Positions 1 through 34,253 of a stretch of DNA of 64,000 nucleotides are shown here, piece by piece; position 1 is the stretch's first letter, and every line of letters starts with the position of its first letter. The notes under the pieces were generated by a model. The model saw only the letters and a program-made list of their open reading frames with translations, searched no databases and was not told the origin of the DNA. A program made the translations under genes and the position numbers. Source of the stretch: Psammoneis japonica. Lineage: Eukaryota. The DNA is taken from positions 1 through 64,000 of the forward strand of contig QPGO01000269.1 in the NCBI GenBank assembly GCA_008632985.1, read 5' to 3'.

Positions 1-2
1 CT

Positions 3-2477: not shown

Positions 2478-2547
2478 GCACCGGTTTGCATGGATGCGGC
2501 ACTTGACAGGCGCCGCCAAAGACGAATGCGCGCGGCTCGTGCGCGGA

Positions 2548-8300: not shown

Positions 8301-8730
8301 CTTGCAATGCCAGAGACAAAGAGAGGCAGGGTTGTTCATGGCATAGAGCTGAGCACCCCTGAGCAGATGGGGAAATGACTCATCTGCAACATTGGTTTCT
8401 TTGCGGGTGCTGTGCAGGTGCTGATGAGAAACCCCACCTTCACAGCCTGTTGCACCTGGATGAGTGGAGCTGGCAAGACATTGGCTGGGAAGTTGTTGAC
8501 TGCACCATGTGGTTGGGCAAATTTGGGATTGTGCACAAACCAAAAGACCACCCATCATTTTGTTTGACAACTGCCCCATGCTGGTGGTCAAAGCAGCCCT
8601 GGTTGGCAATGAGATTGCACTCAGTTGGCATCACCTTTTGGAGCAATGACCACTGCTGGGCAGGTGTGTGGTCCAGTCATCACTGGAATGCTGGGGCTGC
8701 ACCACCACTGCCATGTTGCACCAGTGCATG
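5350..8730. mobile_element. Unclassified decayed transposon-like pieces (TpA/CpG-depleted); possible LINE-like fragment near 8370-8730
   Basis: Near-absence of TA and CG; clustered (TA/TG)CGCCAC motifs at 6700-6870; hosts MITE copy 2; no unambiguous domain recognised. Confidence 0.45.
7705..7912. mobile_element. 208-bp MITE, copy 2 (TSD ACAC)
   Basis: Same 32-bp TIR and length as 1565-1772; acac at 7701-7704 and 7913-7916. Confidence 0.92.
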
Positions 8731-8799
8731 AGAGCAGAGCATGCAATTGACTCAAAATGACAAACAAATGAACTGATCATGCTGCATGACTTGCGCTCA

Positions 8800-11700: not shown

Positions 11701-13935
11701 GGTGTGCTTGCCTGTGTTGCACTCAGTGAGATCACACTTGGATGCGGCCTTGAACTTGTCATTGCCTCAAATGGACCACCTTGGAGAAGACCTTGGATCT
11801 TTGGAAAATGGAGGTGCCCAAAGTGTGCATGCCATTCAAGGAGAGATTTCTGTCCAGCAGACAGGTTGAGATTGTCTGTGCTGCCAACATTGCTCAGATT
11901 GACTTGTGGCACATGAACAGAGCCAAGAGTTGCATGGTCAGCTGGTGAGTGGGAGGAGTGCTTGCCACACTTGAGCATGAGCTCTGGCATTTCATCCAAA
12001 ACAAACTTTGAACATCTTGCTGTTTCCCCAAAAATGAATTTTGACACCATCTTCATGGAAGAGATGCTGTGGAGAGAGCAGCCAAACCCTGGAGGTTGGT
12101 GCAAGACAGGCGCAGAGCTGAGCAGTGATGTTGTGGCCCTTTCTGACCTGAAAGGTCCATGTGACGGAGCCCTCGCCGGCAATGCACATGCCTTCAGCCA
12201 CTGCGCCAAGGATCAGCAGGGTTTGGCAGCACTTGATGGGGCCATCGAAATCATTCTTGTTGGGAGTGACAGCCTGCTGGGATGCACCAGCATCAAAGAT
12301 GACCTGGAGGTCACCCGGTCCAACATGGAAAAGGGCCCACTGGGGATCAGTGGTGAGACATGTGAGTGGGGTCTCCCCAGACATGGCACAAATCACAGCG
12401 GAGGAGGGCAGAACAGGAGATGCAGACAGATCATCCAAAGCTGGCTTTGGGGCATTGGCACAATCAATGAAACAGTGAGCATGACACAGGTCAGTGACAC
12501 CAAAAATGTCTGCACTCATGCAGTTGGTCTCATGGAATGTTTCAGCATCAAAGAAGCCTTTGTGGGAGGTCATGAGCTCCGTGCATGCGTCTTGGTGAAT
12601 TGGGTGCTGTGGTTGACACACATCAAAGGGGCGGCTTGAGACATGGGATCTGGTGGAAACATTTGCACAAGAATTCAAAACAAAATGTCAAAATGGAAGC
12701 TCTTGACATCAGATTGATCGGAGTCTTCAGACGTGTTCCAGTTCCATGTGATGCACAAAATGACATTCCCTTTTGAGCACAATTTGCGCAAGCTTCGTGT
12801 GTTGAGGTTGTTCATTAAAAACACTTGTGCATCTGGCTTTTGCATTTGATTTTGACTGTGTGCATTTAAATGATTTTTTCATCAGTGTTTTTATCTCCAC
12901 AGAACACACATCACAACATTTTTCTGTGGAAACAATGCTGACTGTGCTTGGGCACTTGCACTGCAGAGATTTCTGTGTGCAAGTTGACCACTGCTACAAA
13001 ATGCACACAGAAATGTTTTGTGACAACCTTCAAACAGCAACAACATGTGGATCTTCAAAAATTTTGGCAAAAATCATTCATTTTGTTACAACTCCTTTGT
13101 TGCAATGAAAAAAAATTGATTGCACACAAAAAAACAACAATGTGTGACTGCTGAAACTGGTCTTGTCAGTGTTGCAAAACATTGAATTTGTGTGAATCTG
13201 TGATTTTGGTGGTGAAAGCTCATTTGCAAGTCAGAGACCATGCAAGAATCACACAAATGCCATTTTTGTGCATGTTTTGGTTCACATGTGGCTGGAGAAC
13301 ACGTCTGCCACGGAAACTCAACAATCAAACAGCAACAATCAGCACAGAGACACGCAGGGTTGCTTGAGGGGGGGCAGTCTTGACTTGGTGGGGACTCGGA
13401 GAGTTCTAAACAACGCAATCTGGGTTTGATGTTGCAACAGTTAAAAACAATGACTCACAACAATGGCAGATCTGGGTCCGTGGATTGGCTCCGGTGGCGC
13501 CAGAAGAATGCACTTGCGTGCCTGTCAACGAGAAGGAGGAAGGCTCAGCCACATGCAGAATCAATGTTGACAGACTGGAGATGTCTGTCAAATCAATGGA
13601 CAATGATGCCATTTGAAATGGGTGATCAAAGACTTGTTCTTGATGACAGTCATGTTCAATGACAGTCACGTTCGATGAAAACGTGGTGGCTCGGGGCGCA
13701 GCTCAGGCAAAAGAAGCTGCGCACACTTCTTTTGAGCTCGATGACCACTTGTTGCACCAACGCATGACCAGAGATGTCAAAGGAGCAGAAGTTCAAGGTT
13801 GTAAACCAGTGGCTGTTGTTGTTGCAAAAGCTGTTGACTGAAAATTATGACTGCAATGGCGATCAGAGATTTTGATGGCGGATTTTGAAGTTGGAACACG
13901 CGAGATCGCGATAGCGCAGACATGCAGAATGACAG
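8800..13935 (-). mobile_element. Decayed Ty1/copia LTR retrotransposon (CoDi-like)
   Basis: Minus-strand order: protease (VIFDAGAS), GAG-pre-integrase (LLEWHAHFGHL), integrase (NAPHQSGVAECSI), RT (KSLCGLKQAP, VVHVND), RNase H (CFVDANFA). PPT gagagggag abuts TG at 8997. Direct repeats at ~8800-8997 and ~13745-13935. Many stops and frameshifts; probable nested AT-rich insert ~12680-13300. Confidence 0.88.
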
Positions 13936-14196
13936 GGAGGAGCCACATGTTGCGGTGGTATTCGTAGATCTACTCTCTAAGTTCACAATGAAGTCGCAAG
14001 GAACGACAAGGCAGCAATACAAGTCATGGATAACAAGTCGCTACTAGATTAATATGCGTATATTGCTAGATGAATGGTTGAGATACCGCCGACGCAAGAT
14101 ATCGCTCAACTCATCATAAATGTTGTTTCAACTTCTTTTGTCACCAGCCAATAGCCAATCATGTCAATGATTGCTATTGCAAATTGCAAACCCACT

Positions 14197-17406: not shown

Positions 17407-18024
17407 AGAACACGATTGCCTGTCCATGAAGTGGATGAACGATCGTCGATGAAATGAATGGCATGGAAAACGGCCGCGACGAATAGAGGAGCCGCTAGTG
17501 GTGTTGTCTGTCGACGCACGATACAATTGGAATGCGATTGCGAGACGAATGCGGTCTACAGTCGTGGCACTTTGCAAGTAAAAGAAGAATCACAGTGGCA
17601 ATGTGGAAAAGGACAAGACGTGACGATCCGAATCAAACAATCGTGTCCGAACTCCACGTTCAAGCAACGACGAATCGATCATGTTGTGGCCTCGTTGTGC
17701 TGTTACGACGAACGAAGAATTCATGTGGTATTTTCGATCAAATCGGAGAGTTAAGAGGCAGCATAGTGTGGTCAAGCAGTGGGTAAAATCAATCGTGTGC
17801 CCGGACCATGCGAACTGCTGTCAAGTGATGCAAAACACTGCAATCCGCCTCTCTTTCGTGGAATCTCTGTGGCATTCCTGTGGACATGACGATTGCACGA
17901 CACTCAAGAAGCAAGCAGACTCAGTGTGCTTTGATGAACGATTGAACTCACTCTCGTTGTATTTTGTTGTTTTGCTGTGTTTTGTTTTTTGTTTTTATGA
18001 GAACGCCTGATGTGATTGAGGTGT

Positions 18025-18620
18025 TCTGCGAGAGATCCTCCATTCAGTGCCGGTTCTGTCACAACAGGTAGAATCTACGAGCATTTGTACCAGAGACGTA
18101 GAAGGAGTTCGTAATCGCAACATTTAACAATCCAGCCAAAATCGATCTGTCCTTTCTATGCTCTAGCACTACTCTAGGCCCCACTAGCTACTCTCTAGAG
18201 CTGGGGCCCTACTGGAGTCAGTCTCGGTAGCTTTCCAAAGCATTCAAAGGCGGAGAAATCCAAGCTCTGCTTTGACGCACGTTCTGACATCTTTTTTCCA
18301 GTGAATGTTAAATGTCCAGTCTTCATCCTGTCTAGGAATCTCGCCGTGCAGTTCTCCTAGATGCATTGCCCCACTGTCAGGTTTTGAGAGACGAATGGGA
18401 CTAACATTTATCGGCTGTTATTTTTCATGAAAATGTCTCTAGCAGGAGCTAGCTAATCTATCCAATGTATTCAAAAATGCCGAGATGCCCTGGCCATTTA
18501 ACGAAACTTATATCTTGTCCAACAAATGTTTTGAATGGCCTTTTTCTGTCATGTTCACGATCCTCGCTCTCCCTTTCTAGTACGACCAAACACAACATCA
18601 GTCACGAACACTGTCTAAAA
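18025..18620 (+). repeat. Dispersed repeat paralogous to 3222-3320 and 4660-5090
   Basis: gcgagagatc...ccggttctgtcacaaca(a)ggtagaatctac shared with 3222-3275; downstream part aligns to 4660 onward. Confidence 0.8.
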
Positions 18621-18849
18621 TTTACTGTGAGAAAAGGCTACGAGCAATGTCTCAATCTCATTCGGATTTCTGTCAGGGAACTTTCCACGGAACGTTCTTT
18701 CTGGCAGGGTGTCAAAGTCCCGGTCATTCGAATCTTCCGAATCTACTCTTGATGACGCACTCATGACGTGGAGGTTCACTTCATCCTGTTTGCCTTCGAA
18801 AAATGCAACACAGTGCCTTGCGAGACATGTTTTCCCAAAAAAAGCACTC

Positions 18850-21014
18850 CAGATTCAGAAGTGTTGTTTGTGGCATCATCTCAAGAAACCAGAGAGCATG
18901 AAGATCCAATCGCCACTTGGGTCCAAGAAGGGAACAAAGACCTCAAGCTCTGTCCTCTCATTGAGGAAAATCAGAGCACCAAGGATGACGAGCTCAAGGA
19001 TGTTCTCTGCGACATTGTGCCTTGCAAATGGCAGCACCAGTCAACTCTTCAATGTTTTGAAATTTTGAAACACATGCCTTTAATGAGTTGGTCAAGTTTT
19101 TGTGGAGCACATCTGGAGGTTGCCACCGAAGGATGTCTTTGACTCCACCCATGTCAAGGCTGATGCAAGCAATGAACCTGGATCAAAAGCCAATGATGGG
19201 TCTAATCATGGACCCAGATTGGTTGCCAATCTGGCACCAAAAAACAATCTGAGTGGTGTGCACATGCCCTTTTTCACTCAAAAACATTGTTTTTGTGGTG
19301 TGTCAAACATCTGAGACATTTTGTTTAAATGATTGCGTCAATGGCTTTTAAGCAGCAAAACATGCAGATGGAATTTGAACCAAGCAACAGCCAAAATGGC
19401 CATGGCTTTCAGGGACCATGACGGCCTGCTTTTTTCAACCTTGTGGAAAATTTTTAATGACGCAGCGAGGGCCGCAGCATTTTGTGCAGTTTGTGTCATC
19501 AATGACAACAGTGAGGGTGCTTGTTGCAGGCTGCAGTGCAGCACAAGAGGACTGGTCTGTGAGCAACAGCAGTTGAGCCTCATTTCACTCACAATTTGCC
19601 TCTGAGGATGAGCCTTTTTCCATTGCCATGTGTGTCACACCTCCAAAGTGTCGACTGACAAAAGTGGTTCAGTCGTTTGTGTCAACATGGCAGTGAAATG
19701 GGGTCCAAAGTCAATGCCATTGCATGGGCTGACTTTATTTCTTCTCATGTCTTCCAAAAATTGGCAATCAACAAATGTTTTGTTTGGTCTGTTGAGAGTG
19801 AGTTGCACTTGCACATTTTGACAAAAGTGCTTCATGCAATGTTCAAGGGTTGATTTGCACATGTGACAACTTTTGCTTTGTGTTTTTGTGCGCACATGAT
19901 TGCGGTCATAAATTGCTTGTCAGAAACCAAGCTCTCATTTTGGGGCACAATTTGGCAACCAACAACTCAATCCACCCTCAGTTTTGAATGCATGGGTGCA
20001 TGCACGAATGCACGAGACCTTTTCTGCATGCACCCACAACAACACATTTGAAGATTGTCATGTTTGAACTTTTGAAAATTGCATCAAAAGTTTGGACCAT
20101 GCATTTCATGCAAAAAGGGGCATTTTTTGCACCTGTGTGCACCCAAGTCTGGAGCAAGTCTCCAACAAGCTGTGCAGCTGTTGTGAAAAACCACTCATGA
20201 CACGGAAAAGTGCTTGGTCACCAAAAGACACCAGCAAAAAAAATGACGTGGGAATTGCAGGCATGATCCAAAGTGGCATTGTTCAAATGTCAATCACATG
20301 TGGTCACATTGCAATGATGAAAATGCTGCTCACAAAGAAGAGTTAAATGCTGCGGTCATTCAGGCAGTTCAAAAAACACTCAAGACAAGTGCTTTGAACA
20401 AAAATGCAAATTGCCAGAGCAAAAAGTGTGGCTCTGACCCCCTCAGTGAAAAAAACTGTCATCAATTTGAAAAACTGATGTGCAGCAATTCTAAAGGATG
20501 ACCAGCTCCGCTTCAGAGATCTTGCACCCTGACAGACATTGGGAAGCCCAGAAAAAGGGTCAAAGTGATTTGCACTGGTCCAGCAGTCATCTCTTGCATG
20601 AACACCTCAGGTGAAGCAAAAAATGAGCCTCTGTGCATTCTCCTTGAGACAGCAGAATGTCGTCAACCACAATTTGCACAAATTCATGCAGAAACTGAGA
20701 ACAAAATTTTCCACAACCAAATTTGGGAAACCAAAGGAGGGCTCTTCAGGAATGATGGTCAGTGTAAAATCCAGCTCCCTTTGCTGGAATTTGACAAACA
20801 TGTGATGATGGAGACAACAGCACATGTTGACAACACCCCTTCTTCTTTGAGTCATTGTGACATGATCATGGAATGCAACTTGATGGCCAGTCTTGAGATC
20901 ACATTGGACTTTGCAAACAAAGAAATCAAATGGGAGGATGCAACCACACCCATGAAGAATGTTGACACACTCTCAAGTGCTGATGTTTTCAAGTTGATCA
21001 TCAGAGACCTGTAG
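18850..21014 (+). mobile_element. Decayed Ty3/gypsy gag-protease fragment with an internal insertion
   Basis: DDELKDVLCDIVPCKW gag-like segment; WETKGG...LLEFD...VD...CDMIMECNLMASLEITLDF...IKW...PMK matches the retropepsin C-terminal YDMIIGRDL pattern. Confidence 0.7.
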
Positions 21015-21465
21015 AAATGGCCTTGAGTCACAGGCCATCGAACCCCACCATCTCATGGCGTGCCCACGCGCGCAAACACTGGGTGCTCCCCCTCCTGATT
21101 TAATTTGACATTCACTTGTTAGCGCCAAAATGTTTTCACACTTTGCTGATTGCCATGTCACTCAATTGTTGCTCCCAGACATGTTTTGTTCAATTGGCAC
21201 TTGTTGACTTGAATGCCAACATGCCAAGTCACATGGCTGCATCATCTCATTGACGGTGGACAGTTGCATTGTGTCCCAACTGAAAAATGTTTATTTTCAC
21301 ATTGCATGTGGCATTTTTGCCAAAAGTTCTGCATTTCCATCCTCATTCTGGATGTCAATCATTCCGCCAAATTTTCACCTTTTTCTGTGTCCCCTCCACA
21401 ATCCCTCCTCACCGGCAAATCACAATGTTTCATTTGCACCATTCACCTGAGCAATCACGCATGGG

Positions 21466-21665
21466 AACATGGAATTCTTCTGCAGAGCAAAACACCAGCA
21501 GCAGCAGTTTGTCAGCTGTGGCCGGTCTGTCAGCTGGCTGTTGCATGTGAGCCACCACCACACTGTAAAAAATGGAGATGCACAAACAAACAAAATTTTG
21601 CTGTGTGTCACCCTGTCACATTGTGCAGAAAACCAGTCTGCAAAAAAGATCACCCAAGCACATTG

Positions 21666-21717
<52 letters not shown>

Positions 21718-22239
21718 GCACAGATCTGATGATGATTTTTTGTTGGCTGGGGGCTGTCTGCTCAGCAAGTGCATGTGTGAGGAGCCCACATGCAATGTTG
21801 CCTGGCTGTGCAGTGATCATGACAGATGCTGCAGCAGGACAATGAAACTGGGTCACACAGATGGGAAATTGGGCAGGTTTGGGGGGAGGGGTGGCAAGGT
21901 GCATGTGTGCAGCTTTGCTTGGTGGAGCAGTGAGACCAAGTTGGTCCACAAGAGACATGGCAACAACCACAAGGCTGGGGCTCCAGAAGCCCCACCAGAG
22001 TGGCATGGTGGAGTGATGAGTGAGACCCAAGTGGGTCACAGATGGAGCATTTTTCCATGCTGTGATGGCAGCTTGGAAGATGGCAGAGGGGTGAGAGCAT
22101 TGGCCACAGGTGTGTGCAGCATGGGCTGCCGGGTGCTGGAAGGAGGATTCAGAATTTCAAGGTGGAGCTGGGTGAGCTGGCACTGGATGATGATGGTCAG
22201 CACCAAATGGCGCAGGCAGTGGGAGAAGCATCCGGGGGC
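21466..22239 (+). repeat. ~770-bp direct repeat, copy A (contains (GA)n(GACA)n at ~21668-21717)
   Basis: Colinear with 27513-28278, e.g. shared caggtgtgtgcagcatgggctgccgggtgctggaaggaggattcagaatttcaaggtggagc. Confidence 0.88.
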
Positions 22240-22811
22240 ACTCTCCACAGTGAGACCATGCATTGATCATTTTGACCAAGCCCAAAGGTTGCCACATGGA
22301 CTCATGCAGAAGTCAGATGGATGTTTTGTTGCAATGCCTCTGGAATCCCAGCATGAATCTGCATGCACAAAAAAATTTCTGTGGAGAACTCTGCAGGAAA
22401 CATGCCAGGAGGCATGGCAACAAATTGTCTGCATGCAGCCCTGGCACATTGTCTGTCTTGCTTCCACAAGAGTCATCTGTGAGGACACAACATTGTGTGT
22501 GCACAATGCATGCAACAACAGTCAACACATGGACTCATGATGGAGAGTGATCCACCCAGGGGGGCATTGAGGTGATGGTCAATGGTGAATGGGATGAAAT
22601 GCTGCACCATCACGCAGCGAGACCTGTCCAAACTGGACCATGCCTGTGCACATGCCTGATGTCATGAAGCCTTTTTGCAGACATCACCATGTCACACCCA
22701 TGCAGTGCTTTCCCAACTGCATCACACTTTCATGCACACCCCCACTTCATCCACACAAGAATGTGTCGCTGCCCTGATTTTGTGTTGTTTGCACTGATGA
22801 AGGTTGATCAT

Positions 22812-24382
22812 TTGTCAACGGGGACCCCCCCGTAAGTCTGTGCATTGACCGTGGATGCTTCTGCCCTGTGACAAATGTGCAATGTGTTTCCCACCACAAA
22901 AACATCAAACCAACCATGAAGATTGCAGAGGCCACAACGTTTCTTGTCACTGCATTTTTGGCCAGCTTGCAAGGTGTGTGGATGGATCCTCACTTTGCAC
23001 ATGAGGCACTGCAGCATGGTGGCTTTCTGGACTTCACAAGTCCAGAATCTCATCTGCCCTCTGATGCACCTCAAAGTTGGTTGCAGCCCCATGCACCAAC
23101 AACTGCTGCAAGGGATGTGGGATGTGCTGATGCGCTGTCGCTCGGTCCGGTGACAACTCCAGTGCAGATGCCATGAAGCACAGGAGTCAAAGAGTGTTTG
23201 CTTCTGAGGATGCAATGATTTCCAGAGAGCATCCATTCAATGATGATCAGAAACAGGCTGTCCAAGAAAACTCAATGCGATGGGCATGTTGGGCATTTTA
23301 CTGCACGGGAGTCACTCAAGCATCAACGACCTTTTGAGACATCAATGCAACGCTTCACAGATCATTGCCATTGGAAGAAACCCAGAATCAACAGTTGTAG
23401 AATGACAACCTGGATTGTCCCAGAGCTGTGGCAAATGCTCTGTCACGCCAACAAAAACAGCAGTGCTTCTAGTCACAGCATGGTTGTCCCAGCTCTGCAC
23501 ACTTTTGCAGTGGTCCTTGCCCTTGCCGTTCTCTGATGGGTGGGCATTGCGAACATCCCAAAGGATTCTTTGGTTTCCATTGCCTCTGACAATGCATGCA
23601 TTTGCTTGACACTGCCAATCCACAAAAGACACCGTTTGTGGTCACTTTTGTGTTCAAAACTTCTCCATCAACAAAGAGACAGCAAGGGGCATTCCATGCC
23701 TCCCACTTGTGACTCTTCGTTCATTTCTTTTCATCATTTGGGTGGCCTTGGTGGAGGCTCATGTTTTGTTGCTGCTCAGCAATGGGGACATTTGAGACAC
23801 ACAATTCTTGTCATCACAAAAATCTTTCTGCTGTCAATCCTTTTGATCAAATCTCACCCATGGAATCAGAACAAATGATTTGCAGGAAAGGATCAACAAC
23901 ATGACAGCGGCAACAACCAAAGAAACATTTGTGAGACACGAGACGTTGACGCAACACCACAAAGAACATTGACATTTTGCGACTTGCTCCTGGCACTGAA
24001 GCTCTTGTTTTCTTCCATGCCAGCACCATGCATCATGTGCCAGGATTGCATGCTTCTTTTGTCACTTTTTTCTTTCATTTGGCTGGGCTTGGACGAGTTT
24101 GGCGCATCATTGCTTGGTGAGACGGCAACATTCAGAACCACAATTGTCATCATTGAAAAAACACTTTCACCTGGCAATCCTTTTCTCACCAAAACTTGGT
24201 GGCAGGAGCAGAACAAACGATTTGTTGAAAAGGATTGCCAGCAGAACAGCTGGAACAAGGTTGGCATGCAACAGACTGAAACAGAAATTGTCGCGGTGAC
24301 AACACAAGAAGGGTTGCGTTTCACTTGCAAAAAATGCTCCATCAGATGGTCATACAGACTTGCGGGGGGTTCCCATTGACAA
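22812..24382. mobile_element. ~1.6-kb TIR DNA-transposon relic, superfamily unresolved
   Basis: ttgtcaacggggacccccccgtaagtctgt versus reverse complement of acagacttgcggggggttcccattgacaa (~30-bp imperfect TIR). Confidence 0.7.
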
Positions 24383-25439
24383 GGGCATTGAACCAACTAG
24401 AGTCAATCCCAAAACAAGACCTGGCACAAATTAAGACCCACGTGGGGCATGGCACAAACATGCACAGAATTTTCTGTTGGCAAAAAAAAATTGAGAGGCA
24501 TCGCGTTCAAAACAGCATGACGAGTGCATTTGATTGCCGCCCTTTTTGCCCCCCAGAAAAATCTTTGGCCCTTGCGGGGTCCATCTGTTCTCCAGTGCTG
24601 AAATCACATGGATTTCTGCATGGGTCTTAAATCACCACCTGCCCATCCGCATCGGCTCGTTGGACATTTTGGCTGGCGCACTGAAACCAATGAACCAACC
24701 AGATTTGAAAAAGAGGGTGGGATTTTTTTGTTGCAACTTCAATGAGATCTTTCATGTCCATGCACAAAAAGTTGCATTGTGTGTGCATGGAGAAATTTTG
24801 GTGGCTGATGATCTTTGGTGGGTCTCAATGTGTGATTGACTCTACATTGATGAAGTTGGAACAAAACAGAACAAAAACACACAAGGAGAATGACGGCACC
24901 ATGATGACAAGAATGCAGCCATGCCACAACAATGAGCCAAGCAGAGAACAAAAATCAATCACAATGTTAAAGTTGTGTGTGGCTTGTCCATTGACAACTT
25001 TGCCATGCAAGCAAATGCCACGGATTGACTGAGAGAATGTTCAAGAAAAATGCCAAGTCGCAACAAGACAAGTGTGGCGCACAATGCACCCCAACGCAGC
25101 AAGTGCCTCACATGTGACAAGGTTGTGGGTTGTTCTTAGATGAGATGCAGCCATGCACGCTTTTGTTGCATGAAAAAGCCACTTCTGGGTCATTTCGTGT
25201 GTCGGCTTGCTTGGGGGTGTGGTGTTTGGGGCATGATGTTTTTAGGGAACACTGTTCACCCCAGAACAGTTTTCCTCACAAAAGTTGGCATGGCCTAAAA
25301 TCACATCATGCATGGGGCTGACAACCACCAATTTTTTCTGAGAGGCTCATTTTTGGCACTGTGACATCAACAATCAAATGGAACAGAAGGACAACTCATG
25401 TTCACACTTGCAGGGGCCACAACAGAGGCAGCATGTTCA

Positions 25440-26460
25440 CTCAAAAGAGTGAAGAATTTGGCTGAACAACAGAGAGAATGAAGGCCCTGGAGACCAACTG
25501 GCATGGATGGAAGTGTTCTGGAGATGTGACAAGCAGATCATCAGTGGTGGCATGCAGAAACAATCATGCCAGATCTTGCACAAAAAAGCCAATGGGAGCA
25601 GCAAATGAATGACAATCAAATGACACCAAAGGATGACACTTGCACTTTTGCTGGAAAGGGCTGGAACAGAAGTGGCACTTTTGTCCAAGAGCAAAGGGCT
25701 TGACAGAACAGTGGAGAAAGGAAGTGGCATCAAAGACCAGCTGGCAAGGACAAAAAGCAGTCTGGAGATGTGACATGCTGATCATCAGCACTTTCTGTGG
25801 ATTTGCAAGGAATTTGCACTGGAAGCTGTGCACAAAATTTTCTGAGACAACAGAAAATTTCAAGAAACAACATCCAGCATGTGGGCCACAACAAGGCTTC
25901 AACACTTGTCATTTTCTGCTGGTGAGTGTTGCTCATCATGCTGCAATGAGGTCATGCCATTGGCAAATGTGGACAAAAACATCTGAGAAGGGCAACACCA
26001 GTGCAAGAAGTTGTGCAGACACCTGCACAGAAGCTGAGGGCATGTGGCTGATGTCAAAAAGTGACACACAATCACCCCAATTTGGTTGAGGAGGCAACAC
26101 AGGTGTTGGAAATGTGCAGAGCCACCAACAAGAAATCTGCGGACACAAGTTTTGCACAAATGAAAAAAAGCAGATCAAATGCTGGAAATGCAATGCATGT
26201 GAAGAGGAATTGTCCAACGGCAATGATGATGATCATTTCAATGATGGAGCTGGGTCATGTGGGCCACAGATGTTGGCAGAGTGGTCAAAAAGTGGTGCCA
26301 GACATGGCATGCTTTCCAAGTGTCACCCTCCTGCAGTCAGCGCACATGAGGCCAATCAATCAAAGGCTTGTGCAAAAGAGTGTGTTGGGACATTCAGGTG
26401 GCTGCAAGGCAGCTTTCGCAGGACAGACAGAAAATGTTGCAGTTTGCAGGACACACTGAC
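25440..26460 (+). mobile_element. Possible non-LTR (LINE) 3' fragment, heavily decayed
   Basis: FCGFARNLHWK...HPAC...NTCHFLL loosely resembles the LINE C-terminal zinc-knuckle region; TA/CG-depleted. Confidence 0.3.
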
Positions 26461-27512
26461 AATGGCCAATGATGTGGCAAATTTACACTGGTCACTCAGG
26501 TTGAGCTGCGGGTCTTGTGCTGACTTTCGGCTTCTGCTGCACCTGGTTCACATGACAATGGCAGTTGACAGCATCAAGAATGTGTTTGCGAGCCACAGGG
26601 TGAGCTTGCAGTTGGTGAGATCAAGGATGCACCAGTTGGCAAGCCACAACACTCCAACATGTGGGGGCACTTGCTTTGTCCATTTGTTCAGCTCACAGAA
26701 GTTGCCAATGCACTGCACTGCCATTTGGTTGATTTTTTCACTTTTTCAGCAAACTCCACATCTTTGCACTTCTGTCATTTGTCATCAGAGTCAAGTGAGC
26801 TGCAAAGACAGAATGGTCAAGCTGAGTTCTCCTTTGGGGAAATTGTGAGCACTGTGTAAATGGCATCATTGCAAACCTGGCCAGATGCCTGACAGAGCAC
26901 TGTCAGTCTTCAAAACATCTGTGGATGCTTGTTCATCCTTGTGCCCACAGAGATCCCATCATGGAGGACATCACTGCTTGAGCCAGGAACACCACACAAG
27001 ATTTCTCTGGGAGCAGATCTTGAAAGGCCTTGCACAAAACCCCTCATCATGTTGCCAATGGCTTGTCTCAAAGTTGAAGATGAAAACAATCTGCTGGCAC
27101 ATGCAACGCAGCAAGATCAAAGACCAAAATGCTCAGATGCGGCAATGCTGAGCACCTTTTGGCGCCATCGTTCAGCACCACACATGTGGTGATGGCAGCA
27201 CAACAGTGCAAAGTGGCACAGATGACAGCGCCAGCTGGGCACACAGCAAAATGTGAAGAGGTCAAAGCCAAAAGGTGTCAGGCAGGCCCCATCAGTTGCC
27301 AACATTTTTGTGCCGCAACAGATCACACAACAACACACAACATGTGTCAGACATCCGAGACGGGGAGTGCACTCCCTTTGTGTCAGACTGACTGGCACAG
27401 ACAGACAGGAGAGATCCAATCATCTCTCCTTTGCTCACTTTTTTTCTCCTCCAGCACATGATTGGCATCTGCCCCAGACATCATTAGATCATCCCAACAC
27501 CAGCAGCCCGCA

Positions 27513-28278
27513 AACATGGAATTCTTCTGCAGAACCAAACACCAGCAGCCGCAGCTTGTCAGCTGCTTCCGGTTTGTGTCAGCTGACTTTTGTGCGCAAA
27601 CCAGCATGTTGTTTTTTCAGAAAAAAATGGAGATGCACAAACATGCAAAATTTGGCTGTGGCACCTGTCACATTGCATTGAACGCCAGTCTGAAAAAAAA
27701 TGCCCAAGCGAGAGCTGCGAGGAGAGAGAGAGACAGTTGGTGGTGAATTTTTTGTTGGCTGGGGGCTGTGTGCACACATGAGGAGTTCACATTCAATGTT
27801 GCCTGGTGGTGCAGTGTGGATGATGGATGCTGCAGCAGGGTGAAGAAGCTGGGTCTCATGCAGGTGGGTCTGGGAAATGGGCTGGGTTTTGGGGGGTGGG
27901 GTGGGGGGTGACAAGGGGTGCATGTGCAGCTTGGCATGGAGCAGTGAGAGCAAGTTGGTCAGCAATGGAATTGGCAATCACAAGGAGGGTGAAGCTCTGG
28001 AGGTTCCACTGGAGTGGCGTGGTGGAGTGATGAAGAATGATGAGCCTGAAGTGGGTTGTGGATGAAGAAGCATTTTTCGCTCCATGCTGTGGTGGCAGCT
28101 AGAAAGATGGCAGAGGGAGAGTGTTGGGTGCAGGTGTGTGCAGCATGGGCTGCCGGGTGCTGGAAGGAGGATTCAGAATTTCAAGGTGGAGCCGGGTGAG
28201 CTGGGATCTGCTGCTGCTGCTGATGATGATGATGGTCGGCACCGAACTGCAGCGGCGGTGGACAAAGCATCCGGGGGC
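27513..28278 (+). repeat. ~770-bp direct repeat, copy B
   Basis: Colinear with 21466-22239; ends about 190 bp before the GST start codon. Confidence 0.88.
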
Positions 28279-28471
28279 GGGATGAGGAGGCAAGAAGATG
28301 CCCGCTTGCGGTTCTGTCGAGAGACGCACGTCCCCCAAAACTGCCACGTCATCATTCCCACGTGCTCACTTTTTTTCTGTCATCTTTCTCGGTTCTCGGC
28401 ACAAACATTGTCTCTCTCTACATATTACAAGTACTAGCAAGCAATAAGACAGTCTTCCAACAACACCAGTG

Positions 28472-30142
28472 ATGCTGTCAATTCGACTACTTCTTCCTCA
28501 GCTATTGCTTCTTTCGAGATGCCTAGTAGTCTTTGGCTTTGTTGCAACGCCGCACTACCATGCCAGCATTACGCGCGCAACAACATCCTCCTCTACTTGT
28601 TTGCATGTGGATGGCAAGGGCATGGCGGGCGGTACACAACACTTGGTGGGTGATGTGATTCGTGCTTTACAGCCACGTTATCTTGATCAAGTCAAGAATG
28701 CCATGGTGGGTAATTTGCAAGGACCCGCCGAGCTGGATCTGTCGGGTCTGGTCGACAATGCCCCGACGTGGGAGGAATTGAAGCAAAAGAAACAATTGCC
28801 AACAACAAACGACAATAACGACAAGAAAAATTCAGCCAAGGCTACGGAACGATTATTTGGTGCCAAGGAACCAGTCATGAAGTTATACCGCGATTCGGCA
28901 TCGTGGTGTCCGTATTGTCAAAAGGTCTGGATTACCTTGGAAGAAAAACAAGTTCCGTACGTTGTGGAGAAGGTCGACATGCGGTGCTATGGCAATGGCA
29001 AGCCGTCGGAATTTCTTGCTCTTCAACCCAATGGTAACCTTCCTTGTGCCGTGTTGCTTGATACAAACGAGGTGATTTCAGAGTCGGATCATATTATTGA
29101 TGTTGTGGACAGGTTGGGTGAACCGGGGACTCCCGTGTTGCGACCACCCGAGGCCAAGGAGAGAATGGTGTACTTGTGCGATGACGGACGATACAATTCG
29201 TTGGAACGGAGATTGTACCTTTCTTGGATGTGGTGGTTGACTGGGTCGAGAAGGCCGGAAGAATACAAACAAAATTATGTAACCTTGCTGGATGAATTGG
29301 AAGAGGCACTAGCGGAAGAATCGAGCGGACCCTTCTTTCTTGGGAGAGAAATTTCCTTGGCCGACATTAAGTTTATACCCTTTATGGAACGACAAATTGC
29401 ATCCTTTGCCTATTACAAGGGATTCGAAATTCGTGATGCAACAGAACGACCGAATCTAGTAAAGTGGCTTCAAGCCATGGAGAGTCGGCCGTCCTATCAA
29501 GCAACCAAGAGCGACTATTATACGCACAGCCAAGCGTTGCCTCCACAAATATCGGGGCCCATGAAACCGGATTCAACAGCGGAAGCAACAGCGTTTCAGT
29601 CTCGTATCGATGCCTTGCCACGAGGCGATGCAGCTACCAATAACGACGACAATGATTGGATGGAACCCGGCTGGGACTGGTGTAACAACCCAAAAGACGC
29701 GAGATTCGAAGCGGCCACGAATGTCTTGAACAATCACGAGAATATTTGCAAGTTTGCCGCACGTTCCGCCGGTACGCCCGGATTTCCGGCGGCATCCGCA
29801 CCGCTTGCCGATCCTAGTGCAGTTAGCAACAGTGAGGCCTTTTCTGCTGTGGATGTGTTTTTGCGACACATTGTGAGCTCTTTGTTGGGCACATCCAATC
29901 GCTCTTCTATCGGAGCACCTGCTGCTGCTGCCGCCGCTGCGGCAAATCTTGACCAAGAAACATCCGTGATTGTTGCAGATTGTCTAGACTATCTGCGAGC
30001 ACGGGTTGGTGTCCCACGGGACATGTCTCACCCTGCCGCGCAAGAACTGAGAGCGGAACTCAAGGCCATTTCATCCATGCTTCGATCGAAAACAGAGGCC
30101 GTTGCACAAGAAACTGCAAACGCTACTGCGGCAGTTCGGTAA
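28472..30142 (+). CDS. Cys-type glutathione S-transferase (omega/lambda-like), probably plastid-targeted
   Basis: WCPYCQKVWITLEEKQVPY thioredoxin-fold motif; GPFFLG..ISLADI C-terminal domain motif; signal peptide ending VFG-F followed by S/T-rich transit-like peptide. Confidence 0.9.
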   Translation: MLSIRLLLPQLLLLSRCLVVFGFVATPHYHASITRATTSSSTCLHVDGKGMAGGTQHLVGDVIRALQPRYLDQVKNAMVGNLQGPAELDLSGLVDNAPTWEELKQKKQLPTTNDNNDKKNSAKATERLFGAKEPVMKLYRDSASWCPYCQKVWITLEEKQVPYVVEKVDMRCYGNGKPSEFLALQPNGNLPCAVLLDTNEVISESDHIIDVVDRLGEPGTPVLRPPEAKERMVYLCDDGRYNSLERRLYLSWMWWLTGSRRPEEYKQNYVTLLDELEEALAEESSGPFFLGREISLADIKFIPFMERQIASFAYYKGFEIRDATERPNLVKWLQAMESRPSYQATKSDYYTHSQALPPQISGPMKPDSTAEATAFQSRIDALPRGDAATNNDDNDWMEPGWDWCNNPKDARFEAATNVLNNHENICKFAARSAGTPGFPAASAPLADPSAVSNSEAFSAVDVFLRHIVSSLLGTSNRSSIGAPAAAAAAAANLDQETSVIVADCLDYLRARVGVPRDMSHPAAQELRAELKAISSMLRSKTEAVAQETANATAAVR

Positions 30143-30221: not shown

Positions 30222-31550
30222 TCACGGCACTACAATTTCTGCTGCTCTCTTCCATTTTGTCGATGCTGCATTGGCCTCTCGCATGAGAACATCCAACTGA
30301 ATCTTGACCGATCCTTGACAGTAGTCTTCATTGTCGAGTGGATCCAAAAACACCTTGGACAAGTCCAATAGTCCGTGGTAGAAAAACGTCAAGACACCCA
30401 CGGAAAGGATGGAGAAATCGCCGAGTTCTGCATAGAGAGCAAAGGGTGCAAAGAGTAGAAATAAATCAACCAGCAACTGGACTAAATGAGCATATGCTAG
30501 TGGCATTCTGCCGGCCAGCCGACTGCTAATGCCACCATAAGCGCCCCTCAGAGCACAAAGCTTATCCATGATTAATGCGTGCAATCCCGTGGCTGTCCCG
30601 ATAAATATTCTGTCATCCTGCAATCCATCTCGCACCGAAATCATGATCCATTCCAAAAAGGCCGTTTGCAACTGCGTCGGGCTCAAATCCAATTGTTTCA
30701 AAGCTTCGTATTGTTCTTGGGTAATCACATTGCGTTCCATCATTCGTCTCATTCCAGACGGCGTCAGCAAGACGCGGTATTCTCGCGCACAACTTGCCCA
30801 ATGCAATATATGAAAGGCACGCATTTTTTGTGCCACGCTAGTCAACAAATCATTGGCTTGTCGTGTGTAGCCGCCGCCGGTGCGTCGATTGCGTGTGGCG
30901 TGCGTTGCGAGAAGAAGGGACATGTCATTTAAACGACCCTGAATCGACCGTCCCATGCTGTACACATCCTTCCACAATTTATACGATTCTCCCAAAAAGA
31001 AGGTCAAGGTAAAGGTTGTAATGGTCATGATGTACTTCCACACTTTGGAAAAGACTTCCAATCTTGCAATCATGACATGAGAGCTTGCATCAGGAGCGAG
31101 ACCGATGGCCCATGTGCCACCCGTTTTTCGTTTAATCGCTACACAGAGACACGTGGTGGCAAGCATGTGAAACAATACGGAGGGCAAGACTTCACTCAAG
31201 ACGGTTCCTCTCCAACGAGTCCACAGCCAAAGCCGATTGGGTTGAATGGGTCGAAAAATGTCTCCACCCTTGGTCCCCGTGACTTGATCGAGGACCAAAT
31301 CAATGTCGTGTGTCGATGTTATTTGATCCAATTGTTCCAACGTCATTTTGTCCTTGTGTTTTTGTTTCAAAGTTACTTTTTGAATATTGTTGTTTTGGGG
31401 GGATTTTGCTCGCGCATCATCCAAGAGACATCGTGTGTTTGCATGACCTTTTCGCCGGAACGCCGCAGTCGCATGGTTTGCAATTATCAGTGCTAAAAGC
31501 AACAGCCAGGAAGTGACCATGAAAAATAGGCTGGGTCTTGAACGCTTCAT
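30222..31550 (-). CDS. Bestrophin-family anion channel, probably plastid-targeted
   Basis: TFTLTFFLGESYKLW, MPLAYAHLVQ and FLDPLDNED motifs; signal peptide ending ATAA-F. Confidence 0.85.
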   Translation of the reverse strand: MKRSRPSLFFMVTSWLLLLALIIANHATAAFRRKGHANTRCLLDDARAKSPQNNNIQKVTLKQKHKDKMTLEQLDQITSTHDIDLVLDQVTGTKGGDIFRPIQPNRLWLWTRWRGTVLSEVLPSVLFHMLATTCLCVAIKRKTGGTWAIGLAPDASSHVMIARLEVFSKVWKYIMTITTFTLTFFLGESYKLWKDVYSMGRSIQGRLNDMSLLLATHATRNRRTGGGYTRQANDLLTSVAQKMRAFHILHWASCAREYRVLLTPSGMRRMMERNVITQEQYEALKQLDLSPTQLQTAFLEWIMISVRDGLQDDRIFIGTATGLHALIMDKLCALRGAYGGISSRLAGRMPLAYAHLVQLLVDLFLLFAPFALYAELGDFSILSVGVLTFFYHGLLDLSKVFLDPLDNEDYCQGSVKIQLDVLMREANAASTKWKRAAEIVVP

Positions 31551-31929
31551 TGGTTCTAAAATGACAATTAGAGCTGAAAGCTACCAGACGTCTCATTCAG
31601 GATGTTTCTCTTGCTCTTTGCTTGTTGCCTGCACAAGTTGTGTCGATCGATGTTGACGTTGTGGGTTGGTATCTTTTTCTGAAAAGTTTCATGTTTCCTT
31701 TAGATCTGTATATGCAATATTAGATATTTTGGTTTCCTAAGTATCTTTTTATGTGTTATTTATTCGCTAATACATGAAAATATTTCCAACGGCTTTTGTC
31801 GGACTCTCGTGCGTGCATACTCGAATAAATTTTGTTTCCTTCACTTTGCTGCCGTGATTTTTGTTCTCAGAACTCACTCTGGCCATGATGATTGCTTTGA
31901 TCTTCAGTATTTGACAAAACACCACAAAC

Positions 31930-33027
31930 ATGGATGAGAAGGAATCATGTTGTATAGAGATCGAGAAGGAAGGTTCATTCTCAAAACAAAAGAAATCTGC
32001 ACCATCCTGGGAGAATTCGATTGGCAACACGGCGACTGTTATTTTCGTCATGATGATGTTGCATGAGCTCGCCGTGGAAAACGCCAGTCGAACGTTTGGT
32101 AAACAACTAAACATTCTTCCGTATTCAGTGGCTCTGTCTCAACACGGATGTTGTTTTTTATTGCCATGGATTGTGTTTCGAAAGCAAGAAGAATTTTCGT
32201 TCCAACAAGCAAGTTCCCCCGGTCGACCGATCATTATTCCTCTGGCTGTGACCATGGTGAGCGCTTCCGTTCTATGCAGCATGTCACTCCGATATGTATC
32301 GTACCCGACCAAAATTGTGTTCAAGTCAACCGCACAACTGTTTTCACCAATCTTGTCGTTCGCGTCACGTCGAGACCCGATTCTGACATTCTTGGCGATC
32401 ATCATGGTGTTGGTTGGAATGGCGGGATATGGTATGGATGAATTGGAGTATGGTGATGATGCTACAAGTTTGTTTGGATGGCTTCAAAACAATTGCTTTG
32501 GTCTCTTGCTCTTGACTACAAGTCTTGTGTGTGACGCCTGGGCGTTTAAACTTCGACAGGATTTGGTGGATGCCAGAAACGACAACGGCAATAACGAAAA
32601 GACAATACACACAACAGAGCAACCCACATCATTATGGATACAGTCCATGATACTTTGTCATGGGATTGGATTTGGAATTTTATCCTTGGGTTTGATATTG
32701 ACGGGTCAAGTGTCGACGCTCTTTTCCTTTTGTTGCTTGCACAACAACTTGACAATGTCGCTCCTTATGCTCGGAATTAGTTTGTCGTGCGCCATTATGG
32801 CTACAAATCATCAACAACAAAATCAATCGAGCTGTATCAGTTTGACTACTCGAAATTTTCTTTCCACGGTACAAAAGACGGCATCCGTGGGCTTGTCGTT
32901 TTGGGTATTTCCCAAGGCGTTGCTATCCAATCACATCTATGGTGGCATTTCCGTCTTGGCTGGAACGGCACTCTTGTTTACCAACACGCGACAAGACGAA
33001 AAACGAATAGAAGCGCCAATATTATAA
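31930..33027 (+). CDS. Nucleotide-sugar/PAPS transporter, UAA (SLC35B)-like, divergent
   Basis: SLRYVSYPTKIVFKS signature; ~9-10 hydrophobic segments. Confidence 0.8.
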   Translation: MDEKESCCIEIEKEGSFSKQKKSAPSWENSIGNTATVIFVMMMLHELAVENASRTFGKQLNILPYSVALSQHGCCFLLPWIVFRKQEEFSFQQASSPGRPIIIPLAVTMVSASVLCSMSLRYVSYPTKIVFKSTAQLFSPILSFASRRDPILTFLAIIMVLVGMAGYGMDELEYGDDATSLFGWLQNNCFGLLLLTTSLVCDAWAFKLRQDLVDARNDNGNNEKTIHTTEQPTSLWIQSMILCHGIGFGILSLGLILTGQVSTLFSFCCLHNNLTMSLLMLGISLSCAIMATNHQQQNQSSCISLTTRNFLSTVQKTASVGLSFWVFPKALLSNHIYGGISVLAGTALLFTNTRQDEKRIEAPIL

Positions 33028-33805: not shown

Positions 33806-34253
33806 GTTACATAATGATGAATGAATGAGTGTTGTGGTGCTCTTGCAGAAACAATAATAGACACCGTGTCGCTTCGCAAGCTGTCAAGAACAACGCCGAA
33901 TTTTCAAACATGGCACGATTGACACAACCGCGGTTTATTTTTTTTTGTCGGTCGTGACTGATTTTTCTGTCCGTCGACCGAATTTGTCTGTTCACCTCCA
34001 CGTGGCGACGATGAATCATCGATCTTTCAAGAGAGAGCTCGAGCACGGACGAAATGACGAGAGAAAAAGATCGCAAGCAAACTCGCACCTCGCACTCGCC
34101 GCCGGTCATTGTTGCTGTGTGGGTGCGGCGCGATAGTTGTTGTGGTTGTTGGCTGTTGGTGGTATACAGTATTGCTTTCGGTTGTGTCATACACCGAGTT
34201 GGAGTTGCTATTGCTGATTGAGTCCTTGACAGTGTCTCTCTTTTGTTTCCATC

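Follow-up and report, generated by a model that had tools for sequence, protein, structure and literature searches.

Introduction

The closest described parallel to the pattern that we report comes from the chlorarachniophyte Bigelowiella natans. According to the accessible text of a 2026 preprint by Mettrop et al. (bioRxiv 10.64898/2026.01.13.699255), 230 of the 231 mutations found in two integrated viral regions of its mutation-accumulation lines were A>G or T>C changes, all at the dinucleotide TpA; the TpA rate was about 1000 times the background, and the process was episodic, appearing in 11 of 15 lines. The same text describes clusters of the Bigelowiella genome that are poor in TpA, rich in CpA and TpG, and enriched in reverse transcriptase (RT) and DDE domains, and it proposes a DNA adenosine deaminase, with an ADAT2-like candidate; its accessible parts contain no flanking context beyond TpA, no analysis of CpG and no diatom (bioRxiv 10.64898/2026.01.13.699255). 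Here we study a window of 64,000 nucleotides (nt) of the diatom Psammoneis japonica (GenBank assembly GCA_008632985.1, contig QPGO01000269.1, positions 1 to 64,000), which was analysed as a whole, and we describe both the loss of TpA from its repeat DNA and the sequence contexts in which TpA survives.

Two other processes bear on the comparison. In ascomycetes, the process of repeat-induced point mutation (RIP) converts C to T mostly at CpA, and so creates TpA and removes CpA and TpG (PMC2621366, accessible part). Many diatoms carry DNMT4, which is related to the fungal RIP enzyme RID and whose function is not known, and when DNMT5a is lost in Phaeodactylum tricornutum, methylation disappears and young transposons are set free (PMC9998398, accessible part). 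In the open-access literature that we searched, we found no diatom report of TpA-restricted hypermutation.

The window is diatom nuclear DNA in which intron-poor genes alternate with high-copy repeats and retrotransposon relics. We argue below that these transposons have probably been subject to a context-selective TpA mutator of the Bigelowiella kind, separable from the decay of CpG, and that the TAs which remain would be a mixture of ancestral and new ones that have passed the same filter.

Results

TpA is lost from repeat DNA and not from genes

Over the whole window the ratio of observed to expected counts (o/e) is 0.30 for TA and 0.63 for CG, and it is 1.49 and 1.52 for CA and TG. We divided the window into two states according to the counts of TA and CG per 100 nt, using rates that were set after inspection of a 1-kb profile. 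Six depleted domains result (5401-6700, 6801-13800, 18801-28200, 42701-43400, 47701-50100 and 52401-60400), which total 28.8 kb and contain exactly 100 TAs; their o/e of 0.04-0.11 for TA and 0.18-0.33 for CG is partly built into the definition of the domains, since the rates were set post hoc, but the contexts that flank the TAs are not. A three-state segmentation separates 30.3 kb of normal DNA (TA o/e 0.50-0.58, CG o/e 0.77-1.04) from 27.9 kb depleted of both dinucleotides (TpA o/e 0.05, CpG o/e 0.17-0.33), which we call fully depleted, and from 5.8 kb depleted of TpA only. The domains of the last two classes are listed, together with all other features, in Table 1. Genes with Pfam domains are located solely in DNA of normal composition, where the window's largest reading frames are also found, with domains ordinary for eukaryotes, and the depletion is confined to repeat DNA.

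The change in composition is narrow. In depleted DNA the o/e of CA and TG rises to 1.76 and 1.83, and the twelve dinucleotides other than TA, CG, CA and TG are nearly equal in depleted and normal DNA: AA/TT stand at 1.20/1.25 versus 1.19/1.16, and AT at 0.86 versus 0.95. The G+C content is 0.488 in depleted and 0.476 in normal DNA. Since AA/TT and G+C are almost unchanged, we conclude that the change is restricted to the TA and CG steps. Compared with what the o/e values of normal DNA would give, fully depleted DNA lacks 907 TAs and 1227 CGs and has an excess of 959 CAs and 993 TGs; in TpA-only DNA the losses are 142 TAs and 36 CGs, and the gains are 108 and 122. CA and TG are also locally balanced, with no over-dispersion at scales of 100-1000 nt (ratio 1.1).

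TA is replaced by CA or TG in place

Evidence on how this composition arose comes from sequences that are present in the window more than once. The largest depleted domain contains a degenerate element with two long terminal repeats (LTRs), which agree at 557 of 721 aligned positions and differ by 98 transitions and 66 transversions. At 18 dinucleotide sites one LTR has CA where the other has TG. Because the two LTRs were identical at insertion, such sites are explained by the separate resolution of an ancestral TA or CG. We considered strand-coordinated tracts of mutation and rejected them: the 18 differences divide 13:5 by polarity, and although one polarity prevails over a stretch, their order is not significant in a runs test (P=0.33), and the CA-versus-TG dispersion ratio is 1.1. 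The 5' LTR also carries (GA)n followed by (GACA)n at 21658-21724, which is missing from the 3' LTR. When six X-masked frames of the internal part (22240-27507) were compared with Pfam, nothing convincing was found; the top match was VPS9 (E=0.0086, 16.9 bits, cut-off 27).

A second comparison involves an element that resembles a miniature inverted-repeat transposable element (MITE), with terminal inverted repeats of about 33 nt (GGGGGAAGTCTCCAGCCAGCTGCTGGCTG...). The copy nested in a fully depleted domain has lost three of the four TAs of the less mutated copy (to TG, CA and TT) and two of its seven CGs, and it has kept the TA in CGTAAAA. A degenerate 40-nt probe for this element had 0 matches in a metagenome collection.

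A third comparison is offered by the repeat 18024-18560, which lies directly beside the largest depleted domain and has normal TA and CG content. Its partner, 3220-3324 plus 4660-5017, is interrupted by an insert of about 1.3 kb and is depleted of TpA in the left part only. Of the six TAs in the normal copy, 3220-3324 retains two (GTAGA and TCTAC), has CA in place of three (GTAC, GTAA and TTAA) and AA in place of one. Since 18024-18560 is repeated and yet unmutated, repetition alone is not sufficient for mutation. Elsewhere, 51792-51935 retains CGs and a GTAC where its copy at 55846-55982 has TG/CA and GCAT, and 48307-48730 is an inverted, diverged copy (65% identity) of 26231-26659. A self-comparison of the window after purine/pyrimidine recoding gave no additional repeat pairs. 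In the well-aligned pairs (the MITE, LTR and 3220/18024 pairs among those used, with the 26231/48307 pair excluded) there are 12 differing TA sites, eight of which pair with TG or CA and four with TT, AA, AA and TT.

A fourth line of evidence is the coding relic of a Ty1/copia element on the minus strand, which is bracketed by direct repeats at 8797-8989 and 13745-13936. Its RT reads LCGLKQ at the LYGLKQ-type position and HVND at the YVDD-type position. A full HMMER search with the relic returned 421 relatives at E<=0.001, and a word-indexed protein search returned no match. Among 24 relatives, all four columns with at least 40% tyrosine read His, His, Cys and His in the relic, which has no tyrosine in 153 residues (3.8% in the relatives); to judge from the alignment, its TAY codons evidently became CAY or TGY. 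Upstream there is a weak match to a gag-pre-integrase, in the gene order of copia elements.

As a check on the assembly, we matched the contigs of a public sequencing run, which contains 90% of the words of the window, to the window itself. Contigs of 546, 786 and 812 nt reproduce depleted sequence with zero differences at a word depth of about 60, and with exact matches at such depth the composition is no artefact of consensus calling; the run may derive from the same sample as the window, so that its independence is not full. Another 1169 related contigs give a summed depth of about 2500 on depleted sequence versus about 60 on the adjoining unique gene, and the depleted DNA is therefore high-copy. 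The summed contig depth over a (GACA)-like tract at 27389-27421 is about 15000.

Might these elements never have been mutated in place, being natively poor in TA and CG, foreign, edited as RNA before reverse transcription, or products of sequencing or assembly error? Retroelements do pass through RNA, and the matching run is possibly the source of the window's assembly. We nevertheless regard this explanation as very improbable. The LTRs of a single insertion differ at their CA-versus-TG sites, a nested MITE of the DNA type is mutated as well, copies outside the domains retain their TAs and CGs, an RT relic without tyrosine cannot be a functional native composition, and the error-free contigs argue against miscalls. 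Editing of RNA on one strand would bias the strands, but the gains of CA and TG are equal and locally balanced. For the same reason, and because the LTRs diverged after insertion and the MITE is affected, we reject ADAR-like editing of retroelement transcripts. Thus, the LTR, MITE, RT and copy evidence, together with the equal and balanced gains, excludes native composition, RNA editing before integration and GC-biased drift. Taken as a set, these comparisons show the depleted domains, judging by their sequence, to be mobile and repeat DNA in which TA was converted to CA or TG in place.

Surviving TAs have a distinctive context

Among the 100 TAs of the two-state domains, and counting each tetranucleotide with its reverse complement, we find 29 TTAA, 21 GTAA/TTAC, 18 CTAA/TTAG, 11 CTAC/GTAG, 10 ATAA/TTAT, seven CTAG, three ATAG/CTAT, one ATAC/GTAT, and neither ATAT nor GTAC. 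Here and below the basis is one 64-kb window: its mutated DNA contains 141 TAs, and about seven sites can be polarised. RTAY (purine, TA, pyrimidine) accounts for one of the 100 survivors versus 346 of 1105 TAs (31%) in normal DNA, and YTAR for 54 versus 192 of 1105. Under the three-state segmentation the 100 survivors include two RTAY, 52 YTAR and 28 TTAA.

A prior inspection of the letters, to which we refer as the sequence-only reading, had described the rare TAs of depleted domains as very often TCTA or TAGA, most others as TAA or TTA, and RTAY as nearly extinct. All 26 positions that it listed are indeed TCTA or TAGA, and its description of the three classes agrees with our counts. Of the 100 survivors, 25 are TCTA or TAGA and 78 are TTA or TAA; the corresponding counts among the 1103 TAs of normal DNA are 147 (odds ratio 2.2, Fisher P=0.0027) and 450. 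One class or both take in 94 of the 100. In the interval 18760-28410, for example, there are 32 TAs, of which ten are TCTA or TAGA, 21 are TTA or TAA only, and one, the sole RTAY, is neither. The emphasis on TCTA/TAGA proved too narrow, however. That class is enriched, but the rule is the wider T-A-(not T)-A.

This can be seen when each TA is read on either strand as a half-site T-A-n1-n2, which gives two half-sites per TA. The base n1 is A, G, C and T in 54, 23, 17 and 7% of the survivors' half-sites, versus 23, 20, 30 and 27% in normal DNA. The next base, n2, is A in 112 of 200 half-sites (56%), versus 29% in normal DNA, and this holds irrespective of n1 (TAAA 61%, TACA 64%, TAGA 59%). With the three-state boundaries n2 is A in 114 of 200 half-sites, where dinucleotide transitions would give 61 (P=9e-15). 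TAGA, for instance, accounts for 27 of the 46 TAG half-sites, while A occupies the same position after CA/TG in 26% of cases (P=2.5e-6). The third base beyond TA is slightly rich in A/T, and the fourth equals the background.

We express survival relative to the normal, gene-rich DNA of the window. By tetranucleotide it is highest for TTAA (0.68) and zero for ATAT and GTAC. By n1 half-site it falls from 0.25 for TAA to 0.10 for TAG, 0.05 for TAC and 0.03 for TAT. By n2, survival in fully depleted DNA is 0.18 for A, 0.05 for C, 0.09 for G and 0.04 for T, and in TpA-only DNA it is 0.33 for A versus 0.09-0.13 for the rest. For individual half-sites, the survivals in fully depleted and TpA-only DNA, respectively, are 0.36 and 0.34 for TAAA, 0.23 and 0.12 for TAAG, 0.19 and 0.46 for TAGA, 0.08 and 0.26 for TACA, 0.011 and 0.074 for TACC, 0.047 and 0.055 for TATG, 0.016 and 0.031 for TATC, 0.012 and 0.049 for TATT, and zero in both for TATA. 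The signature is replicated across domains: the 16 half-site survivals of the TpA-only set and of three separate depleted domains agree with one another (Spearman rho 0.55-0.76, P 0.0007-0.03).

The contexts of the survivors are not those of the DNA in which they lie. We drew up five expectations for them, from the TAs of normal DNA, from the CA/TG of depleted DNA, from AA/TT, from GA/TC, and from six precursors pooled. These predict 21-31% RTAY, 17-26% YTAR and 1.4-9.5% TTAA, and the binomial P for RTAY and YTAR ranges from 1e-9 to 1e-16. A first-order Markov model of depleted DNA predicts 19.5% RTAY (P=1e-7), 31% YTAR (P=1e-5) and 9.9% TTAA (P=3e-7). The survivors thus depart from background under every expectation that we considered, whether from normal DNA, precursors or Markov chain. 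A match to background would have refuted the signature by the standard of the sequence-only reading, and the signature withstands that test.

The footprint of TpA loss differs from that of CpG loss

The 5.8 kb that are depleted of TpA with near-normal CpG imply that the two losses are separable. The TpA-only blocks (TA o/e 0.06-0.15, CG o/e 0.61-0.95) flank the fully depleted cores or stand apart from them. The largest of them, 1-4000, yielded no Pfam family in its open reading frames (ORFs) of at least 100 amino acids, and a CpG-rich tandem repeat of 34-38 nt in about three copies lies within it at 2551-2691, with a CpG o/e of 1.49 in that 250-nt bin. We also considered that TpA loss spreads past the LTR end into 139 nt of unique flank, and rejected this, as the 30.3 kb of normal DNA contain ten TA-free gaps of at least 139 nt.

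The context signature is present where CpG is intact. With the three-state classes, TAGA/TCTA is commonest in TpA-only DNA, at 15 of 41 TAs; the counts for fully depleted and normal DNA are 26 of 100 and 156 of 1157. The longer GTAGA/TCTAC makes up 11 of the 41, and normal DNA has 53 among its 1157 TAs (odds ratio 7.6, P=4e-6); within 1-4000 alone, 11 of 30 TAs are TCTA/TAGA and nine of 30 are GTAGA/TCTAC.

Could the survivors then be protected, as protein-bound or otherwise functional TAGA/TCTA and TAA/TTA sites? The recurrence of GTAGA/TCTAC might suggest so. However, the survivors lie at random in DNA that is non-coding and decayed and belongs to unrelated elements, the preference is graded over two positions and does not define a site, and no conserved motif of greater length surrounds them; we consider protection or selection extremely improbable. 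The sequence-only reading had proposed that the flanking bases point to an enzyme or a protecting protein, and not to general GC-biased drift. The selectivity is real and general drift is absent, an enzyme would be the most economical reading, and a protecting protein finds no support.

As for CpG, copies of the same repeat differ by CG versus TG/CA, and the CpG deficit is restricted to depleted domains. In the fully depleted domains, CpG has a relative survival of 0.59 in GCGC, of 0.37 in GCGG/CCGC, and of 0.12-0.14 in TCGA and ACGA/TCGT. The CpGs with A/T flanks decay fastest there. This half of the pattern fits the decay of methylated transposons, methylation being presumed.

The coincidence of the two footprints raises a further possibility, namely that TpA carries a miscoding epigenetic mark, such as 5-hydroxymethyluracil (5hmU), 5-formyluracil or a modified adenine, and that the flank rule is the specificity of the enzyme that writes it. 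An oxidised thymine is able to pair with G. The TpA footprint coincides with, and slightly exceeds, that of CpG decay in presumably methylated transposons, TA and CG are both self-complementary steps, and the outcome is strand-symmetric, with a local balance between CA and TG. Dinoflagellate repeats are enriched in 5hmU, which a TET/JBP enzyme produces and which contributes to the silencing of transposons (PMC11572971, accessible part). On the other side, the MITE has lost three of four TAs and only two of seven CGs at 9% divergence, which would require a very high rate of miscoding, and the process in Bigelowiella, as far as the preprint's accessible text goes, is episodic and a better match for a triggered mutator than for steady decay. 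We therefore hold such a mark to be rather unlikely.

Selective loss and selective gain

A set of surviving TAs in particular contexts may reflect either a filter on loss or a biased source of new TAs. It is important, therefore, to weigh the two. A multiplicative model of selective loss assigns flank survival factors of 0.83, 0.31, 0.16 and 0.08 to A, G, C and T, and in its two-flank form reproduces each of the ten tetranucleotide classes to within the error of sampling. An additive model of gain, in which new TAs arise from CA/TG, gives rates by the 5' neighbour of the C of 0.049 for T, 0.017 for C, 0.002 for G and 0 for A. The corresponding explanation would be that a mutator removes TAs uniformly and that the TAs present today are mostly new, produced by C-to-T at T-N-C-A (G-to-A at T-G-N-A). 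The sequence-only reading had likewise raised the alternative that these are contexts in which new TAs arise.

Several sites can be polarised, and they are a mixture. Four survivors are common to two copies and hence ancestral: the GTAGA and the TCTAC of 3220/18024, which belong to the TAGA/TCTA class, the CGTAAAA of the MITE, and an ATTTA that 26231-26659 has in common with its inverted copy. At 21292 (TTTA) the T is derived, as the 14 other contigs among the listed differences from the sequencing run all have C there. Two LTR TAs, in the contexts GTAAAA and CTAGAA, are each unshared, and their partners are AA and TT; they were probably derived by transversion, and not by the C-to-T change that the gain model requires. 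New TAs in these contexts therefore account for at least one survivor, and other survivors are ancestral.

Since survivors of differing history and origin obey one context rule, we prefer a loss filter to a single biased source of gain. Other observations agree with a filter. Outside TA there is no sign of a C-to-T mutator directed at TC: TC/GA is barely depleted (0.94/0.98 versus 1.07) and TT/AA barely raised. The context rule is at least as strong in TpA-only DNA, where C-to-T decay at CpG is negligible, and unbiased gain from any precursor would predict 21-25% RTAY. TA density, finally, is 3.2-4.6 per kb in every fully depleted domain and near-Poisson (variance/mean 1.06-1.25), with no significant clustering of the surviving TAs in depleted domains; such a similar density across domains is what a floor of gain and context-dependent loss would produce.

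There is evidence that weighs against the loss filter, and it should be set out. The gain model fits equally well (log-likelihoods 130.0 for loss and 129.2 for gain, with nulls of 63.6 and 86.6), and uniform, Poisson-like TA density across differing elements is also expected of a gain equilibrium. At NTAA the share that became CA is 41-55% in fully depleted DNA, depending on the baseline, where a strand-wise hit would give about 90%; the estimates for other contexts and for TpA-only DNA scatter widely. The flank effect may thus be one on the duplex step, or the TAA class may be replenished by regeneration, neither of which is a simple strand-by-strand process. The survival of TAAA, moreover, is equal in TpA-only and fully depleted DNA while that of the others drops, which suggests regeneration or near-immunity. 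Gene-rich DNA stands in for the ancestral composition of the elements, the sample of TAs and of polarised sites is small, and the case is made from an end state read in sequence alone. Weighing both sides, we consider selective gain unlikely.

A loss filter suggests the following mechanism. Two separable transition processes would rewrite transposon and repeat DNA of the diatom in place. The first would be TpA hypermutation, TA to TG or CA (A-to-G on either strand, or equivalently T-to-C), and the second the decay of CpG to TG/CA, as in methylated transposons. In the first process, loss would be fastest where n1 is T, then C, then G, and slowest where it is A, and several-fold slower where n2 is A. 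RTAY is unfavourable on both strands and is therefore eliminated, while TTAA, TAAA, TAGA/TCTA and TACA persist. The remaining TAs, about 3.6 per kb, would be a floor population that combines ancestral TAs in refractory contexts with new ones, arising by transition or transversion, that last only in such contexts. We infer that the filter reflects the specificity of an enzyme; by analogy with Bigelowiella, a DNA adenine deaminase would be the leading candidate, and the mutator may still be active in this DNA.

Genes and open reading frames

The features of the window are collected in Table 1. For the STT3 protein, the best relatives (53-62% identity) come from diatoms or are environmental sequences without a name, and the named relatives include those of Striatella, Amphora, Epithemia, Mayamaea, Pseudo-nitzschia, Nitzschia and Phaeodactylum. 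In the protein collection searched, the diatom of the window thus has no near relative. Among 71 metagenome loci around STT3 relatives (393 kb), none of 1470 windows has TA o/e <0.15 together with CA/TG >1.5; these contigs are gene-rich, and repeats assemble poorly, so that the comparison serves as a control of specificity and is weak evidence on the repeats of other diatoms.

The roughly 34 kb of fully depleted and TpA-only DNA contain 117 ORFs of at least 100 codons, which overlap on both strands. Because TAA and TAG are almost gone and TGA is the sole stop, long ORFs arise on both strands. A Pfam scan of the 117 gave one convincing match (RVT_2). Their products are rich in Cys, His and Trp and nearly free of Tyr, and would be annotated as spurious genes. 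Local duplications of 92-133 nt, tandem or near-tandem and 89-94% identical, occur at 60536-60796, at 39550-39646 with 39912-40010, and at 55759-55850 with 56021-56112, in normal as well as in depleted DNA.

Table 1. Domains, repeats, relics and genes of the 64,000-nt window; domain classes follow the three-state segmentation.
Feature	Position	Strand	Remarks
TpA-only domain	1-4000		30 TAs; TA o/e 0.13, CG 0.95, CA/TG 1.54
MITE-like element, less mutated copy	1563-1773	plus	211 nt; 4 TAs
Repeat copy in TpA-only domain	3220-3324	plus	paired with normal-DNA copy 18024-18127
TpA+CpG-depleted domain with copia-type relic (minus strand)	5401-13300		25 TAs; TA o/e 0.05, CG 0.17
MITE-like element, copy nested in fully depleted domain	7703-7913	plus	191 of 211 identical (91%)
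copia-type RT relic	9896-10354	minus	Pfam RVT_2, E=1.1e-8, 35.4 bits, cut-off 31.6
Gag-pre-integrase match, weak	11628-12212	minus	PF13976, E=0.0061, 16.8 bits, below cut-off 28.4
TpA-only margin	13301-13800		2 TAs; CG o/e 0.61
TpA+CpG-depleted domain, high-copy repeat	18801-28200		32 TAs; TA o/e 0.05, CG 0.21, CA/TG 1.86
5' LTR of degenerate LTR element	21460-22240	plus	self-alignment; internal part 22241-27506
3' LTR	27507-28279	plus	CpG density normal again at its end; next TA beyond at 28419
TpA-free, CpG-normal margin	28201-28400		covers the LTR terminus plus 139 nt of flank; alone not significant
GST-like protein	28448-30142		
Bestrophin	30222-31580	minus	
UAA-type sugar transporter	31915-33027		
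STT3	34230-36452		uninterrupted frame
Small TpA+CpG-depleted domain	42701-43400		4 TAs; segmentation
Endonuclease/exonuclease/phosphatase-family protein	46007-47548	minus	
TpA+CpG-depleted domain	47701-50100		11 TAs; segmentation
TpA-only margin beside fully depleted domain	51801-52900		9 TAs; TA o/e 0.15, CG 0.70
TpA+CpG-depleted domain	52901-60400		28 TAs; TA o/e 0.06, CG 0.28
AMP-binding enzyme	61017-62033	minus	

Discussion

In the literature that we searched, TpA-restricted hypermutation is known so far from one 2026 preprint on one chlorarachniophyte. The end state described here, on ordinary LTR and MITE transposons and at a level twenty-fold below expectation, would add a second major algal lineage and would extend the targets from viruses to transposons. 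It is quite possible, though somewhat less likely than not, that diatoms possess a DNA mutator, targeted by chromatin or by repetition, which erases the TpA of transposons as the mirror image of RIP, independently of the decay of methylated CpG and even where CpG is intact, and that together with the Bigelowiella process it represents an old genome defence shared by the algae among stramenopiles, alveolates and rhizarians.

If this is so, then what the mutator recognises can be deduced from the TAs that remain: T-A, then T>C>G>A, then a base that is not A. The rule would provide a direct assay for the enzyme and a testable handle, in that TATC and TACC may be compared with TAAA and TAGA as substrates of candidate deaminases or thymine-modifying enzymes. 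The different footprints of TpA and CpG loss, furthermore, would allow two silencing-linked processes to be told apart from their traces in a genome. There is also a practical consequence. In depleted domains hardly a TAA or TAG stop or a tyrosine codon is left, so that they yield spurious ORFs and their transposon proteins are missed by profile searches; with one convincing Pfam match in 117 ORFs, such domains distort the annotation of genes and repeats in diatom genomes.

How does the flank rule compare with those of known enzymes? The adenosine deaminases of the ADAT/TadA/ADAR lineage prefer U or T before the edited A (accessible text of bioRxiv 10.64898/2026.01.13.699255). The pattern in the window resembles theirs in that a T precedes the mutated A at TpA. 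On the 3' side, G is the best and U the worst neighbour for ADAR, which is opposite to the order in the window, where n1 = T is the most mutable. AA and a TAA consensus are among the hotspots of polymerase eta, but in the window AA is left alone and TAA resists more than any other context. APOBEC-type C-to-T mutation at TpC was considered and rejected, as TC/GA stand at 0.94/0.98 versus 1.07/1.07 and TT/AA at 1.25/1.20 versus 1.16/1.19, which are marginal shifts. We know of no ADAR, TadA/ADAT, APOBEC or polymerase-eta signature that matches T-A-(T>C>G>A)-(not A).

The decay of CpG in methylated transposons is a second point of comparison. As in that process, the change of CG to TG/CA is confined to transposon DNA, and survival is highest in GC-rich flanks. 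Decay of 5-methylcytosine, however, accounts for the CpG half of the pattern only, as TpA is lost where CpG is intact (1-4000).

The likeness to RIP is that of a process akin to genome defence, and of its outcome: transitions riddle repeated and mobile DNA, reading frames are destroyed, and blocks of skewed dinucleotide composition stand beside normal genes. The direction is the reverse. Here TpA is removed and CpA and TpG are created (TA o/e 0.05, CA/TG 1.76/1.83), so that the domains lack the signature of RIP. The unmutated repeat copy at 18024-18560, next to a depleted domain, is a further difference.

The process described in Bigelowiella is the closest to what we find. The window has its distinguishing marks, namely transitions at TpA, the sparing of other A/T dinucleotides, and discrete blocks of mobile DNA beside normal genes. 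In both cases TA becomes TG or CA on both strands without a general drift from AT to GC, and, so far as the accessible text of the preprint describes it, kilobase-scale blocks of mobile or foreign DNA, RT and DDE sequences among them, are depleted of TpA and enriched in CpA and TpG. In Bigelowiella the mutation rate was measured directly, according to that text, while the diatom window presents only an end state. The targets there were one insertion of a giant virus and one of a virophage, still with a TpA rho of at least 0.45; here they are LTR/copia and MITE repeats with an o/e of 0.05. And unlike the account given in the accessible text for Bigelowiella, the pattern in Psammoneis japonica comes from another algal lineage, includes a separable decay of CpG alongside that of TpA, and carries a flank rule that can be read from the TAs that survive.

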